From contig JBFXGX010000004.1 in the NCBI GenBank assembly GCA_050177605.1, positions 1-64,000 on the forward strand: 64,000 nt of DNA, written 5' to 3'. Below, in pieces: positions 6,001-12,000 of this stretch. Position 1 is the first letter of the stretch. Every line of letters begins with the position of its first letter. The DNA comes from Candidatus Izemoplasmatales bacterium (lineage in GTDB: Bacteria > Bacillota_I > Bacilli_A > Izemoplasmatales > Hujiaoplasmataceae). A program made the position numbers.

Positions 6001-9000
6001 AGACTACATGGATGAAAAAAACAACGTAAGAAGATATGTTACTGAAGTTGTTTGTGATTCTGTTGTTTTCTTAGAAAGCAAATCACAAAGAGATTCAGGA
6101 AATGAACCTTACCAACCACGAACTAACGATCGTTATGAGCAAAGTCGTAATGACGAACCAAGTAAGAACATCAATATTATTGAAGATGACTTACCATTCT
6201 AAATAAGGAGGAAACGGGAAATGTATAACAAACCACAAGGTGAAAGAAGAAGCAATAACGGCGGTCCACGTCGTAGAAATCGTAAAAGATGCTACTTCAC
6301 TGAAAATAAAGTTACTTACATCGATTTTAAGGATTTCGAACTTTTAAAGAAATTTATCTCTGAAAGAGGAAAAATTCTTCCAAGACGTGTAACAGGAACG
6401 AAAGCTTATTATCAAAAACATTTAGCTGTTGCGATTAAGAGAGCACGTTTCATGGCTTTATTACCATTCGTAAAAGACTAGTAAATTTCAGAAAGACTCG
6501 CGAGAGTCTTTTTTTTCGCCAAATCTTAGTCATTTATTTTATATTAATATTATGATATAATATTCTTGATTTTCAATTTTGCGTAAGGAGTGAAAAGATG
6601 AAAGTTAAAAATTACTTATTCGAAGTCCTATCTTTAATCATCTTTTTGATTCTTGGTGTAATTGCGTTTATACTAAGAAACGATTTTTCATCTACGCTTG
6701 CTTTGGTCTTTTTTTATGTATCGATTGCCTTGCTCCCAATTTTTACAATCACGCACTTTTTCCTAGGAAAGACAGGGAAAACGAGAATCCATAATCTAGA
6801 AGAAAAAATCAAAGAAATGAATCAACTGAATAAAAGGTTAAAAAACTCTGAAGATATTGCTTTAAACTATTTGCCAGTTGGTATGGTCATTTATGATGAT
6901 ACTTTTACGATTTCATGGGCAAACGCTTCTGCGAAAGAATACTTTCAAAATGTACTTACGGGCAGAAAACTCAGTGTTGTACATGATGAACTATCGAAGC
7001 TTGTCGAAAAAAGAGAAGGGAAATCGATTGTATCGATTTATGACCATGAATATGAAATGGTCCACTATCCTAAAAACAAGTGTGTGTATCTGTTCGAAGT
7101 GACTGACCGTGAAGAAACGAAAAAGAAGTTACGAGACCTGACTTATACCATCGGTGTAATGTCACTTGATAATTTTTCTGAAGCGACTCAAAATCTTGAT
7201 TTTCAAGAGAAAACAACGATTCAAGGAAAGTATCTGAGTGCGCTCGATAATTGGTGTAAAGCAAACCATATTTACTTTGTGAACTTGCGTCCAGAAAAAT
7301 CAGTGTTATTCCTTTCAAGACTTCAGCTTGATGCCTTGATGAAAGAAGAATTTAGCATTTTAGAAGAAGTAAATCGCTTATCCAATCAAAATGAAATACG
7401 TGTGACATTGTCGATTGGTATTGCTTCAGGAGACAGCGAAATCGATGACCTTGGGGAACAAGCCGAAGAAGCCTTAAAACTTGCTTTAGGTCGAGGCGGA
7501 GACCAAGTCGTTGTAAATATTCAAAATCAACCATTAAGATATTTTGGTGGGAAATCAAATACCGTTGAAAAAAGAACGAAAATTACAGCTCGAATTAACT
7601 CAAGAGCTCTTGCGGAGCTCCTTGGTAAACACGAACGCATATTCATTATGCCACATAAAATGACTGATATTGATGCACTCGGTGGAAGTGTTGGTCTTTT
7701 ACAAATGGCCCTTTCAGAAAATAAAGATGCGAAGATTGTATTAGATTTTGAAAAGATTGACCAAACATGTACGAAAGTTGTGAATATGTTAAATCGTGAG
7801 TATGTCAAACTTCTTGAATACTTTATCGATCCGGACGATGCAATCGATGAGGTCAATAGTGATTCACTATTAATCATCATTGATCATCATGCCGCCTCAC
7901 AAACAATCGCTCCAAAACTACTTGATAAAACAAAACATGTTGTCGTGATTGACCATCATCGACGTATTGATAATGCACTCACAGATGTGCTATTAAACTA
8001 TGTAGAGCCCTATGCATCCAGTTCTGTGGAACTCGTCATTGAACTTGTGGAACTTTATCATAAAGAAGTTGCGATTGATCCGTTCGAAGCGACGATGATG
8101 CTTGCGGGAATGATGATAGACACGAATAACTTTACATACCGTACCGGTGTTCGTACTTTTGAAGCCGCAGCCTTGTTAAAACAATATGGGGCAGACCCAT
8201 TTAAAGCAAGACTGATTTTGAGAGAGTCTTTAGATGACATTAAAACAAAATCGAATCTTGTAAATCAAGCAGAGATTGTTTTGCAACATTTTGCGATTAC
8301 TGCACTTCGTGAAGATAGTCAAACTGACCGCGTATCGCTTGCTAAAACAGCAGATGAACTTTTAGAAATCGACAATATCATTGCCTCATTTGCGCTGGGA
8401 AGAATTGATGAATCGACAATCGCTATTAGCGCAAGAAGTATTGATAAATTCAATGTGAGTATCATTATGGAACAATTTGGTGGTGGTGGACATTTAAACA
8501 ATTCTGCTGCACAAGTTGAGAAACAATCGATGGAATCACTCGTTAAAAAAATAAAAGATATTTTAGAAACAACATATAAGGAGGAATCAACGATGCAAGT
8601 CATCTTAGTGAAAGATGTCAAAGGCAAAGGTAAAAAAGGTGAAATTATTGATGTTGCTAGTGGATTTGGTAATTTCTTATTATCAAGTAAACAAGCAATC
8701 GAAGCAAGTAACCAAAACTTAAAGGCCTTAAGTGACGAAAAAGCAAAAGCTGATAAAGAAGCACTTCTTGAATTAGAACAAGCCAAGAAGGTGAAAGATG
8801 AGTTAGAAAATGCACCGATTAAACTCTATGTGAAGATTGGTGAAACTGGAAAATTATTTGGCGCAATCAATTCAAAACAAATTGCAGAAGAGTTAAAAGT
8901 ACAGTATAATATTGAGATAGATAAACGTAAAATTGTTTTAGAAGATAACATCCATTCCTTAGGTAGCTACAAAGTAGCAATCAAACTACACAAGGATGTT

Positions 9001-12000
9001 ACAGGGTATATTAATTTACAAGTTCTAGAAGAAAAATAAGCCAGGAGGAAGTTATGGAAAAGAAAGTCCCTCAAAATATTGAAGCCGAACAAGCTGTACT
9101 AGGTGCGGTTTTTTTCGATCCTTCAGTAATGAAAACCATCCAAGATAAGTTGGTGGAAGAAGACTTTTATTCTCCAAATCACCAAGTGATTTTTCGCGTG
9201 ATGAAATCCCTCTATCAAGATAATATTCCAATTGATTACCAAACGCTCACAGATCGACTAGAAAATCAAAATAATTTAATTAGAGCTGGTGGTGTCGAAT
9301 ACATCACAGGACTCATTGATGCTGTTCCTTCGACAGCGAATTTACTCAATTATATTTTTATCGTCAAAGATAAATCCATCGTTCGTAAATTCCAAGATGT
9401 CAGTCGTAAGTTAATTGAAGATTCCTATGAAATCGAAAGCACACCAGACTTCATCGATGATGTTGAACGTGAACTGATGGCAATTACCAAGGAAAGAAGA
9501 ACCACAGACTTTAAACAAGTCGGTGAGATTGCCGAACTACAAGTAGAAAAGATTGCCGAACAAGCACAAATTGGGGGAAACATTACTGGTCTAGATACCA
9601 AGTATCATGAACTCAATAAGTTTACCCTAGGGCTTCAACCTTCCGATCTATTAATTATTGCGGCTCGTCCTTCAATGGGAAAAACGGCATTTGCTTTAAA
9701 TTTAGCTTTAAATGTAGCGAAGAATGCAGATAAGCCACATGTTGCTTTCTTTAGTTTGGAAATGGGTGTTGACCAACTTGTTATGAGACTTTTAGCTTGC
9801 CAAGCGCAAGTCGATAGCTTTAGAATGAGACAAGGTGCACTTAATTCTAGTGAATGGGAAAAACTCCACTATGCAGTGGATGCATTAAGTGGATTAAATA
9901 TGTACTTTGATGATTCAGGTACAGTCAGTGTTTTAGATTTGCGTAGTAAATGTCGTAAATTAAAACAAGACGATAAACTCGATTTAATTGTGATTGATTA
10001 CTTACAACTTTTAAGTGGATCAAAACATAATCAAGCCAACCGTGTTCAAGAAGTTTCTGAAATTAGCCGTGTATTAAAAGAAACCGCGAGAGAATTAAAA
10101 GTGCCAGTGATTGCACTTTCTCAGTTATCTCGTTCGATTGAACAAAGAAAAGAAAAACAACCAGTGATGGCCGACCTTAGAGAGTCTGGATCGATTGAAC
10201 AGGATGCCGATATCATTATGTTCTTATATCGTGAAGACTATTATGAAGAAAATACGACAAAAAAGAATATCGTGGAAATTTCCATTGCGAAAAACCGTAG
10301 TGGTACCATTGGTAAATTTGAATTATTGTTTAATAAAAGTATGTCTACGTTCAGTAACGTCCACACATCCAGTGCGGGAGATGCGTTTGATCGCGACTCT
10401 TACAGCGCTGACAGCTAGCAGTCGCAAGACTGTTTTTTGTTGGGTTTAAACGTGAAAGAATTTAGGAGGAAAAGAAAATGTTATTAGAAAGATTAGACCA
10501 AATCGAAAAAAGATATATTGAAATAAATGAAATGTTAATGGATCCAAATATTGGACAAGATATTAAAAGACTAACCGAATTAAGTAAAGAAAACAGACAA
10601 CTTGAAAAGACTGTTGTCGTTTACCGTGAGTACAAGAAGTGTTTAGAAGAAGCTCAAGGACTCAAAGAAATGATTAAAGAATCCGATGGCGATATTCTCG
10701 AAATGGCAGAAATGGAACTTGAAGAAATTCATGCGAAGATTCCTGTTTTAGAAGAAGAACTCCATCTCTTATTAATTCCAAAGGATCCGAACGATGAAAA
10801 GAATGTTATCGTGGAAATCAGAGGAGCTGCTGGAGGAGATGAAGCAAATATCTTCGCTGGTGATTTGTTTAGAATGTATAACAAATATGCAGAAACCAAA
10901 GGGTGGAAAGTTGAAATGTTATACGCAGATCCTGCAGAGGCAGGGGGCTTCAGTCAAATTGAATTCCAAGTCAGTGGTGAAAGCGTGTATTCTTTATTAA
11001 AATATGAATCGGGCGTACACCGCGTGCAACGCGTTCCACTTACCGAATCTGCGGGACGTATTCATACATCTACAGCGACCGTACTTGTAGTGCCAGAAGC
11101 TGAAGAGTTAGACTTTGAAATTAATATGGATGATATCCGTGTGGATACTTTCTGTTCAAGTGGACCTGGTGGGCAAAGTGTTAACACCACAAAATCAGCT
11201 GTTCGCTTAACCCATGAACCGACTGGAACCGTCGTACAATGTCAAGATGGAAAAAGCCAACATGAAAATAAGGCAAGTGCTTTAAAGATTTTGAGAAGTA
11301 GACTTTATGATAAATTATTACAAGAAAAACTTGATAAAGAAGGCGAAGATCGGTTAAATAAAATTGGTACTGGGGACAGAAGTGAGAAGATTAGAACTTA
11401 TAACTATCCTCAAAACCGGATCACTGATCATCGCATCAACTTTACGATTCAGCAGTTAGATAGAATCATTGATGGACGTCTCGATCCAATCATCGAAGCG
11501 TTAATTGCGGAAGAACAAAAACGTAAATTATCAAAGAGTGAAGAATAATGGCTACGTTTCATCAAGTATTAAAAGATGCAGAAAAAAAGGCTAGAACTTT
11601 TGGCAAAGAAAGTAGTGCATGTAAATTATTACTTCTTCATTTTTCAGGACTCACTTCTTCAGAGCTCTATCTATCATTAGATAAAGAAATGAAAGAAGAC
11701 AACTTGAAATTGTTCGATGAAGCCTTAAACAAATACATTACGAAAAACATTCCGGTTCAATACCTCATCGGCTATGTCTATTTTTATGGATATCAGTTTT
11801 TGGTGGATGAAGGAGTATTAATTCCTCGTTATGAAACGGAAGAACTTGTTGCGAATGTCTTAATTCAGTATGATGAATTATTTCAAGGTGAAAAAGTAAG
11901 ACTTGTCGATATAGGAACAGGAAGCGGTGCGATTGCTTTATCGCTCGCGCTTGAAGATAGAAATCTAGAAGTGAGTGCTACCGATATTTCTTCAGAAGCA

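Follow-up and report, generated by a model that had tools for sequence, protein, structure and literature searches.

The genes for the c-di-AMP phosphodiesterase GdpP and ribosomal protein L9 form one uninterrupted frame in the 64,000-nt window (the whole stretch of DNA analysed here) from a genome of the Izemoplasmatales, and the locus is an ancient in-frame gdpP-rplI fusion that probably acts as a two-product gene, which would yield abundant free L9 together with a selected long GdpP-L9 protein. The survey's finding had described an 813-aa frame with six Pfam domains; the ORF listing contained that frame, and all six domains were reproduced exactly. The order is a putative TM region, then PAS-GGDEF-DHH-DHHA1 (GdpP), followed by a complete L9 without a stop between. 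The features of the locus, including its Shine-Dalgarno (SD) sequences, are as follows.

6492..6516, + strand: terminator-like hairpin AAAGACTC-GCGA-GAGTCTTT with T-run (read directly; absent from the consensus-scan list)
6553..6561, + strand: candidate promoter of gdpP-rplI(-dnaB), extended -10-like TGATATAAT (read directly)
6585..6590, + strand: SD AAGGAG of the long frame, 7 nt 5' of ATG 6598 (read directly)
6598..9039, + strand: fused gdpP-rplI frame, a single ORF of 813 aa (ORF listing)
6598..8568, + strand: GdpP part, residues 1-657 (Pfam)
within 6598..8568, + strand: hydrophobic N-terminus of the GdpP part (start of the frame)
6841-7101, + strand: PAS_GdpP, residues 82-168 (Pfam, 59.3 bits)
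7162-7530, + strand: GGDEF_GdpP, residues 189-311 (Pfam, 96.1 bits)
7636-8112, + strand: DHH, residues 347-505 (Pfam, 72.4 bits)
8302-8568, + strand: DHHA1, residues 569-657 (Pfam, 47.3 bits)
8569..8592, + strand: stop-free eight-codon linker TTYKEEST (junction DNA and structure model)
8578..8584, + strand: internal SD AAGGAGG within the coding frame, codons AAG GAG GAA (junction DNA, duplex energy)
8593..9039, + strand: complete bL9, residues 666-813, internal ATG 8593-8595, stop TAA 9037-9039 (Pfam, TIGR00158)
8593-8730, + strand: Ribosomal_L9_N, residues 666-711 (Pfam)
8776-9027, + strand: Ribosomal_L9_C, residues 727-810 (Pfam)
9043..9056, + strand: dnaB SD AGGAGG and ATG (9054), 14 nt past the L9 stop (ORF listing and DNA read)

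The hairpin lies just 3' of the rpsR stop (6479-6481) and sets rpsF-ssb-rpsR apart from the gdpP unit, and the promoter consensus scan around 6553..6561 returned weak 9/12 matches only. gdpP-rplI-dnaB is a tightly packed unit.

The open junction and the two protein parts

Contigs from a second sample of the same study span the junction with 0 differences, and contigs from two other studies and one metatranscriptome library span it as well. Among the differences listed for these contigs were base substitutions and no indels; none fell at 8575-8609, and strain differences near the junction were almost exclusively at third codon positions. Because contigs from other samples stay open there, the junction is not an assembly error, as the survey had maintained. 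The metatranscriptome contig, from a ~95% relative, covers 8429 through rplI to beyond 9200. Its end at 8429 is not a transcript start, because a DNA contig of another run ends near there (8428), and it was taken as cover only, as contigs cannot demonstrate one single transcript.

In the GdpP part, PAS_GdpP, a degenerate GGDEF_GdpP, DHH and DHHA1 all scored above the Pfam cut-offs and in GdpP order. The PDB relatives of this part were 5xsi_A and 9n0l_A, the latter a 'Cyclic-di-AMP phosphodiesterase' matching residues 89-661 (1e-78). Forty-eight aligned relatives were invariant at H24, D28, D30, D100, D123-H124-H125, D179 and G300-G301-G302-H303 (alignment numbering), DHH/DHHA1 residues (DxD, DHH, GGGH) that we take to be the catalytic motifs. 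By its domains and intact motifs the part is a GdpP-type c-di-AMP phosphodiesterase, for which hydrolysis is predicted. Two hydrophobic stretches, candidate helices of an N-terminal membrane anchor, were seen by eye at residues ~8-55 of the translation, and the long membrane-anchored GdpP-L9 that the survey proposed follows from the open frame as a predicted protein.

The L9 part alone (residues 666-813) scored 60.3 bits with L9_N and 95.2 bits with L9_C, both above the curated cut-offs, while the whole 813-aa protein reached 118.9 bits with TIGR00158 (L9) against a cut-off of 58.6; 1div_A was a PDB match (2e-36). The claim that this is the only rplI in the assembly agrees with a single L9_N match in its own genome, located at the fused locus; since the assembly is 89% complete, a second rplI could lie elsewhere in the genome. 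As the sole L9 in the assembly, the fused domain is therefore presumably the ribosomal L9 of this cell, with 50S incorporation predicted. An AlphaFold model of residues 330-813 (pLDDT 88.1, pTM 0.59) comprised two well-folded parts and ~5 unstructured linker residues, contact between the parts not being readable from the model. The very short linker may hinder the long form from filling the L9 site on the 50S subunit. A complex prediction of DHH/DHHA1 (330-657) with L9 (666-813), using 48-row alignments for each, scored 0.00, which is evidence neither way.

The internal ribosome-binding site of L9

The junction DNA reads ...ACA TAT AAG GAG GAA TCA ACG ATG CAA..., and the strength of its internal SD is far above chance. 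The survey had placed AAGGAGG 7 nt before the L9 Met666; the motif is present at 8578-8584, and the spacer to the ATG at 8593-8595 is 8 nt in the DNA, a trivial difference. The duplex of AAGGAGG with the anti-SD had an energy of -11.1 kcal/mol, a value reached by 0/635 other gdpP codon positions (median -0.9, best -7.4 kcal/mol), and the best SD energy at the 15 in-frame internal ATGs of the gdpP part was -4.3 kcal/mol.

The L9 start codon was kept in all 71 fused genomes with a single L9 (ATG 68, GTG 2, TTG 1); SD energies there had a median of -11.1 kcal/mol, and the SD was strong in nearly all. Weak SDs occurred in some fused lineages (family f12, down to -3.1 kcal/mol; one phytoplasma with AAAGAAAG). 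AAGGAGG was kept in 34/34 genomes of family f1, and the 14 f2 genomes that were read have it as NAGGAGG; the amino acids over the SD varied by family (KEE, QEE, GGG, TEE, EKE) while the GGAGG bases persisted. In 92% of 53 genomes the start window was less folded than the remainder of the gene. A scan for an internal promoter 5' of L9 gave only a weak 9/12 match at 8441-8468, the region holding 27 matches vs 18 expected.

Origin and maintenance of the fusion

A stop-free match across the junction was found in 98 of the 101 genomes of the order; the other three had no match covering it. Across the class (300 genomes scored, 1 unscored), the unbroken frame occurred in 103 genomes belonging to 8/29 families (f1, f2, f3, f12, f15, f19, f20, f28), which adds f28 to the families that the survey had named. 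In the gene tree (176 rows) the fused rows, 99 in all and 97 of them distinct, share one side of a single branch, with one change and SH-like support of 93; it is a FastTree of the trait-bearing gene itself, and its key branch carries that support and not a star. No reversal to the split state was seen among the 99 fused rows. In the last eight linker codons, 5.2 single-base changes on average would create a stop, and the fused clade has a length of 30.5 amino-acid changes per site; an expected number of reversals based on these figures takes neutral change to be no slower than protein change. On this gene tree the fusion arose once; that it is old and has been maintained is as the survey had concluded.

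The split loci point to how the frames were joined. The gdpP stop of split relatives falls in the region matching the linker 8569..8592; in 25/62 split loci, mostly from Clostridia, a stop in the L9 frame immediately precedes the ATG and the SD lies 5' of that stop; in the sister family f5 the gdpP stop is one codon 5' of the L9 ATG. Because the clostridial gdpP stop abuts the rplI ATG in frame, a single base change is enough to fuse the genes. Within Clostridia, DHH-DHHA1-L9 read-through forms were seen only as singletons on single contigs. L9-DnaB read-through forms were also sporadic there.

In ten genomes of family f19, from two genera, the fused frame is followed after 13-20 nt by an additional, free rplI; in G393 the free rplI overlaps the end of that frame. 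All ten fused frames were open and full length, and in all ten the start codon of the fused copy was absent (AAG, ACT, ATT, GCG or TTA instead, turning Met1 into K, T, I, A or L), its SD was lost (-2.4 to +1.0 kcal/mol), and M1, G24, G90 and K111, of 23 conserved L9 positions, were missing. Start codon and SD are thus kept where L9 is single (71/71) and gone where a free rplI follows (0/10 with a start), a pattern that supports the survey's suggestion that free L9 may be made from the internal start. The L9 fold was still recognised in 9/10 fused copies lacking Met1. The ω values of the g125 fused copies were 0.15 (CI 0.09-0.25), 0.17, 0.30, 0.32 and 0.41, all with CIs <1, and the fused L9 domain in g125 is under purifying selection; g134 fused copies gave ω 0.66 with a CI reaching 1.01 and saturated dS. 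Distant pairs were left out of the dN/dS analysis because dS was saturated. In the duplicated genomes the fused copies evolve faster than the free copies, and their topology mirrors that of the free copies; the 148-column L9 tree gave no resolution between one duplication and two. The fused copies have also lost the most conserved L9 motifs; the role of the domain on GdpP need not be ribosome binding.

We propose an ancestral layout, which Clostridia still show, in which the last gdpP codons contained the SD of rplI and the gdpP stop was followed directly, in frame, by the rplI ATG. One stop substitution would have joined the frames once, in the ancestor of the Izemoplasmatales, the Acholeplasma/phytoplasma family and several further families of the class. 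Ribosomes starting at 6598 must, as follows from the sequence, produce a membrane GdpP of 813 aa that ends in an L9 domain, and those recruited by the internal AAGGAGG to ATG 8593 would, judging by the comparison of genomes, produce free L9 (148 aa), which the ribosome requires in bulk. The long form would be more than a by-product, since the joined frames appear to be maintained by selection, as does the attachment of the L9 domain to GdpP even beside a separate rplI. On GdpP the domain may serve for docking to the ribosome or to RNA, or have a structural or regulatory role.

A rival account, to which we give a minor share of the probability, is a single loss of the stop that left a harmless long product; only the activity of GdpP and the internally started L9 would then matter, inertia doing the rest. 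A single base change would suffice, the DHH-DHHA1-L9 and L9-DnaB read-throughs of Clostridia are sporadic, the fused copy diverges faster when a free rplI is present, and the long product is a prediction from sequence. However, none of the 99 fused rows has reverted, even though a stop is only one base away in several linker codons and sister groups manage with the split layout. A neutral appendage should also near ω = 1 and gather stops, whereas the fused L9 stayed open in 10/10 genomes after duplication, with ω of 0.15-0.41 in g125.

It is very improbable that only one product exists, with all L9 derived from the long protein (cut by a protease, or whole in ribosomes) and the SD and ATG kept for the protein sequence. 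The open frame means that the long protein must be made, and eukaryotes, in which ribosomal proteins are made as cleaved ubiquitin fusions, provide a precedent; but the amino acids over the SD differ among families while the GGAGG bases stay, wherever a free rplI exists Met1 has given way to another residue (K, T, I, A or L) although the fold is recognised in 9/10 copies, and a low-abundance membrane protein would be an unlikely source of a stoichiometric ribosomal protein. The chance that the missing stop of this MAG is an artefact of sequencing or assembly, or the mark of a pseudogene, is negligible: the window does come from a metagenome assembly of 66 contigs, but the same open junction recurs in another sample and other studies, in 98/101 genomes of the order and in 103/300 of the class, and strain differences at the junction, among those listed, are almost all at third codon positions.

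The two-product gene would be a clean natural case in which a single stop loss turns two coupled genes into a nested gene, and in which a later duplication, in f19, separates the two roles again. That the fusion was fixed long ago in an entire clade, never reverted and is kept beside a separate rplI suggests that the gdpP-rplI link is more than shared transcription. A more speculative idea, which we hold to be rather unlikely, is that GdpP works together with L9 or an L9-fold domain: the long protein would bring the phosphodiesterase to ribosomes or RNA at the membrane, or the L9 fold would act as its regulatory module. If so, the fusion would be a 'Rosetta stone' for the gdpP-rplI operon linkage throughout Firmicutes; f19 would be a split of one gene's two roles caught in the act, its fused copy having specialised with loss of the start codon, SD, G24, G90 and K111 and retention of the fold and purifying selection. 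A physical coupling of c-di-AMP turnover to the ribosome, or a second function of the L9 fold, becomes a concrete question, for which cultivable Acholeplasma, with the same fused gene, is a testable system.

Prior record and known systems

The GdpP-L9 architecture itself is not new, and the survey's caveat that databases may already list it was borne out: it is modelled in NF011110 (PRK14538; NCBIfam), 'putative bifunctional signaling protein/50S ribosomal protein L9', and present in a 2014 supplementary table. The window protein aligns with NF011110 end to end (residues 37-813 to model positions 57-836 of 838, E 1e-198), and its 662.3 bits lie under the curated cut-off of 707, i.e. the same architecture outside the equivalog bounds. 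The cut-off was passed by f15 (Acholeplasmataceae-type, 932-1150 bits) and f20 (876 bits) and missed by f3, f12, f19 and f28. Table S3 of Grosjean et al. 2014 (PMC4014445) marks RplI as 'fusion' for ACL_0196 (Acholeplasma laidlawii) and for phytoplasma PAM012, PA0149 and ATP_00177; the last three recur under the NrnA column, the printed A. laidlawii row ending earlier, and the main text has no passage on the RplI fusion. Both the model and the table are silent on the internal start, the origin of the fusion and its function. The survey's finding is correct, yet less novel than first rated; new are the single-branch origin without reversal, the clostridial stop abutting the rplI ATG, the start kept in 71/71 genomes and the f19 duplicates. 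Public records name such proteins (810-850 aa) '50S ribosomal protein L9' only, so the phosphodiesterase is hidden in annotation.

Literature searches on GdpP/DHH/rplI/L9 fusion, Acholeplasma and phytoplasma found no paper on the function of the fusion, no proteomic or ribosome-profiling data for the two products, and no explanation of the gdpP-rplI operon linkage. PMC11229311 was rejected as a paper on the fusion, its terms matching by chance alone. The linkage itself is noted in the c-di-AMP literature: an excerpt of PMC4568413 states that gdpP shares an operon with rplI.

GdpP (YybT) of Bacillus, Staphylococcus and Streptococcus has the same domain order as the window GdpP, whose solved relatives are 9n0l and 5xsi, and the same neighbours (rpsF-ssb-rpsR ... 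gdpP-rplI-dnaB/dnaC). In those genera gdpP and rplI are separate, whereas in the window there is no stop and L9 is the C-terminal domain of GdpP. The clostridial arrangement gdpP-stop-ATG-rplI (Romboutsia, Lachnospiraceae, Clostridium tanneri and others) has the frame, the SD place within the last gdpP codons and the length to the ATG as in the window; its stop directly 5' of the ATG is what the window gene lacks. In-frame internal starts giving a long and a short protein occur in infB (IF2 forms), clpB and cheA. As in those genes, one frame has two starts and the short product is the C-terminal part of the long one; unlike them, the short product here is a complete, unrelated ribosomal protein, nested through the fusion of two genes.

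The fused gene and its junction

The gdpP-rplI gene is a single ORF of 813 aa at 6598..9039 (+) in the ORF listing of the window. Six Pfam domains, each above its cut-off, run from the c-di-AMP phosphodiesterase GdpP into ribosomal protein L9, as the survey's finding had described: PAS_GdpP (residues 82-168), GGDEF_GdpP (189-311), DHH (347-505), DHHA1 (569-657), Ribosomal_L9_N (666-711) and Ribosomal_L9_C (727-810). The claim that this is the sole rplI of the assembly also held, with a single L9_N match, at the fused gene (assembly 89% complete, 66 contigs). Direct reading of the junction gave ACA TAT AAG GAG GAA TCA ACG ATG, in which the spacer between AAGGAGG and the L9 Met, earlier put at 7 nt, is 8 nt.

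Features of the fused gene and its neighbourhood in the window
5427-5717, rpsF, upstream neighbour
5738-6202, ssb, upstream neighbour
6221-6481, rpsR, last gene before gdpP-rplI
6492-6516, hairpin and T-run 3' of rpsR, before ATG 6598 (direct reading)
6553-6561, TGATATAAT box, before ATG 6598 (direct reading)
6585-6590, AAGGAG, before ATG 6598 (direct reading)
8578-8584, +, internal Shine-Dalgarno (SD) AAGGAGG (direct reading)
8593, +, L9 ATG
9054-10418, dnaB, 14 nt past the L9 stop, with its own AGGAGG
next after dnaB, prfA

A consensus scan placed a strong promoter-like site before rpsF (5332-5360; 11/12 match with TG). Together with the hairpin and T-run after rpsR, this suggests that rpsF-ssb-rpsR and gdpP-rplI-dnaB would be separate transcription units in the window.

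The anti-SD duplex energy in the 18 nt 5' of the L9 ATG was -11.1 kcal/mol, a level that the other 635 gdpP codon positions never attained (median -0.9, best -7.4); at the 15 in-frame internal ATGs, the SD energy was -4.3 kcal/mol at most. Contigs from other public runs were compared over window positions 6400-9200. A second sample of the same study bridged the junction with 0 differences (8290-8600 and 8571-8865), and contigs from two other studies (8428-8925, 24 differences; 8266-9187, 70 differences) and a single metatranscriptome-library contig (8429 to past 9200, 34 differences) bridged it by substitutions only. Among the differences listed, outside which lie 44 less-supported ones, no indels were found across the junction and none fell at 8575-8609; those near the junction were at third codon positions, with one exception at 8461. 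The open junction in contigs from other samples and studies confirms that the fusion is not an assembly error.

Spread of the open frame and its internal start

The whole protein matched all 101 sampled genomes of the order, 98 of them (manual row count) with the junction covered and free of stops. Frames of 810-885 aa contained the full-length matches, the remainder being pieces ended by contig ends; in genomes G086, G098 and G015, the matches were fragments or weak paralogue hits, none of them spanning the junction. A class search with the last 230 residues (300 genomes scored, one unscored) found an unbroken junction frame in 103 genomes from 8 of 29 families, including every sampled genome of those eight. 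The stop-less frame is thus kept through the order and some other Bacilli_A families, as had been proposed. Both reading frames adjoin with a stop between them in families f5, f9, f10, f11, f24 and f25, and L9 is separate (~150 aa) in further families. Among named contigs, 18 of the 80 loci retained were fused, including MAGs labelled Mollicutes, Acholeplasmatales and Acholeplasmataceae, Candidatus Phytoplasma pruni and Columbia Basin potato purple top phytoplasma.

Families with the unbroken frame: number of genomes; median SD energy at the L9 start in fused single-L9 genomes (kcal/mol)
f1: 15 and the window's own; -11.1
f2: 17; -10.3
f3: 2; -8.9
f12: 16; -6.0 (one at -3.1)
f15: 22; -9.7
f19: 18; -11.9
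f20: 6; -9.3
f28: 6; -9.5

Two loci types stood apart in the gdpP part. In f9 (L091-L093; G265, G361, G313), the frame ending just before rplI is only ~320-350 aa, so the DHH protein upstream of rplI may be without the TM-PAS-GGDEF part; the f9 frames of 470-500 aa in the class search run through the stop and include L9. The Acholeplasmataceae MAG locus L138 (JALQTF010000055.1) has a fused junction but an upstream TGA 361 codons before L9, which may reflect a shortened GdpP, a frameshift or a MAG error.

A start codon was present at L9 position 1 in all 71 distinct fused single-L9 genomes (ATG 68, GTG 2, TTG 1), with a median SD energy of -11.1 kcal/mol, in support of the earlier proposal that free L9 can be made from an internal start. 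The residues encoded by the SD vary by family (KEE, QEE, SEE, MEE, GGG, TEE, EKE, TGG) while the GGAGG-like bases are kept, which points to a constraint that would act on the RNA, not the protein. In 92% of 53 genomes, folding around the start (-25..+25) was less stable than in windows elsewhere in the gene (mean z +0.91); because these genomes are related to one another, the p-value is too favourable. At the phytoplasma junctions L126 and L150, the ATG is kept and the SD-like stretches are weak (GAAGGGG, AAAGAAAG); initiation there may be less SD-dependent.

Fused and free L9 copies in family f19

A TIGR00158 search of 49 f19 genomes found two L9 sequences in ten, comprising 8/11 of genus g125 and 2/2 of g134. 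At these tandem loci (L080, G249:C45:1-3500; L102-L110, in G237, G385, G386, G387, G388, G389, G393, G384 and G376), a fused frame of 817-848 aa is followed 13-20 nt downstream by a free rplI of 147-149 aa with its own SD; in G393 there is no spacer, and the fused frame overlaps the start of the free gene, its L9 part running 159 codons. Position 1 of the fused L9 was not a start codon in any of the ten (AAG in five, ATT in two, and ACT, GCG and TTA), and these copies lack an SD (-2.4 to +1.0 kcal/mol). In the free copies, position 1 is ATG and the SD energy -5.7 to -10.3 kcal/mol.

All ten fused L9 domains were open and full length (144-159 codons), and nine still passed both Pfam cut-offs, with lower scores than the free copies (L9_N 13.4-42.2 vs 50.5-60.4 bits; L9_C 20.3-54.2 vs 46.5-88.2 bits). 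At the 23 reference positions with 90% or more conservation across 58 canonical L9 sequences, fused copies retained 13-18 and free copies 21-23. M1, G24 (the G of GYANFL), G90 and K111 were lost in all ten fused copies, and D8, A35, A38, K68, I97 and G124 were retained in all ten.

The fused L9 domain of g125 is under purifying selection, with ω values (95% CI by codon bootstrap) of 0.15 (0.09-0.25) for G237/G385, 0.17 (0.09-0.27) for G386/G388, 0.30 (0.18-0.51) for G387/G386, 0.32 (0.20-0.52) for G237/G386 and 0.41 (0.25-0.65) for G393/G388. The free copies gave 0.08-0.24, and the g134 pair, in which dS is saturated, gave 0.66 (0.40-1.01) for the fused domain. In the L9-domain tree, the g125 fused copies grouped as one clade (support 94/75) with the same branching pattern as the free copies, so the two copies were passed on jointly through several speciation events. 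From this tandem evidence, we read the internal start as probably needed only while the fused copy is the sole L9 source, the L9 domain on GdpP as apparently kept for its own sake, and its second role as one that would be independent of the most conserved L9 motifs.

Genome G390 of a tandem-bearing genus (L111, G390:C3:132600-135800) has a single fused L9 with ATG and SD that nests among the free copies; the tandem may have collapsed here by recombination, re-creating the ancestral fused state. A third, free-type L9 piece in G385 (C38:10-414, 107.5 bits) sits at the edge of a contig; the genome is 5% contaminated, and the piece probably reflects a strain mixture or contamination.

Origin, interpretation and catalogued relatives

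In 25 of 62 split loci, the gdpP stop is in frame with L9 and immediately precedes the rplI ATG, and the SD falls within the last gdpP codons (for example CAGGAGGAAGATTAG ATG). Among the groups with this layout are Romboutsia, many Lachnospiraceae, Clostridium tanneri and Eubacteriaceae. Family f5, in which one contig carries the label Candidatus Bathyoplasma, has its stop one codon upstream of the ATG. Judging by sequence, a single substitution in that stop is sufficient to join such frames. In a FastTree tree built from the C-half of GdpP together with L9 (176 rows, three duplicating other rows), all 99 fused rows fell to the same side of one branch (SH-like support 93, one change), and f5 was the sister of the fused clade.

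Querying with a Lachnospiraceae L9 for longer proteins recovered DHH-DHHA1-L9 and L9-DnaB read-through forms as single-contig singletons only, so such joins arise or are miscalled, but without fixation there. The L9-DnaB singletons are many (~590-604 aa; P0124, P0128, P0129, P0133, P0136 and others), carry L9_N, L9_C and the DnaB N- and C-terminal domains, and come from metagenome assemblies near Lachnospiraceae; sporadic loss of the stop between rplI and dnaB, or errors in gene calling, may explain them. Proteins P0196-P0238, some labelled Candidatus Aminicenantes, have only L9_N and L9_C at ~260-300 aa, roughly double the usual L9 length, with an unexplained extension.

The main rival explanation is that the loss of the stop has simply been tolerated. 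Branch lengths in the fused clade sum to 30.5 amino-acid changes per site, and single-base routes to a stop average 0.97 in the two codons before the ATG and 5.24 in the last eight. Under neutral fission, with neutral change no slower than protein change, ~10 to 50 reversals are predicted, as a rough bound and not a test; no reversal to the split state was seen among the 99 fused rows of the gene tree. We consider tolerated loss unlikely. The one-step and single origin, the absence of reversal, the retained internal start and the f19 duplication together favour two products, free L9 and long GdpP-L9, both selected, as the best explanation and a likely one. The survey's finding and its interpretation are real and supported, respectively.

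In an AlphaFold model of residues 330-813 (pLDDT 88.1, pTM 0.59), the last DHHA1 helix ends only ~5 residues before the first L9 strand, so the modelled tether between them is very short. A structure search with the window protein found no solved chain covering both the GdpP and L9 parts. The long form might serve in ribosome or RNA docking, or have a structural or regulatory role in GdpP. Interest in the fusion is moderate, and would be sharply higher if the long form binds ribosomes or needs its L9 domain.

No paper addressing what the fusion does or how it arose turned up in a full-text search of a limited literature collection. In supplementary file 8 of Grosjean et al. 2014 (PMC4014445), RplI is entered as 'ACL_0196 fusion', 'PAM012 fusion', 'PA0149 fusion' and 'ATP_00177 fusion'; the three phytoplasma tags recur under the NrnA column, the printed A. 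laidlawii row ends before those columns, and the main text only states that fusions are so marked. Of two other papers, one notes an operon shared by gdpP and rplI (PMC4568413), and the other places phytoplasma rplI upstream of dnaB/dnaC and prfA (PMC3750655). In public records, the Izemoplasmatales proteins are listed as '50S ribosomal protein L9' or, once, 'cyclic-di-AMP phosphodiesterase'.

The suspicion that domain-architecture databases might already hold the fusion proved right: the NCBIfam equivalog NF011110 (PRK14538), 'putative bifunctional signaling protein/50S ribosomal protein L9', models the same architecture. The window protein aligned to it end to end with 662.3 bits, under the cut-off of 707. 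Relatives from f15 (932-1150 bits) and one from f20 (876) passed, and f28 (694), f12 (645), f19 (614) and f3 (637, 435) fell short; sequences of the Acholeplasma/phytoplasma type were thus evidently the basis of the model. The architecture is already catalogued and the window gene is a further member; new are the derivation of the fusion in one step from the stop-ATG layout of Clostridia, its single origin with no later reversal, the internal start kept without exception in fused single-L9 genomes, and the f19 duplication, in which the two roles are separated.
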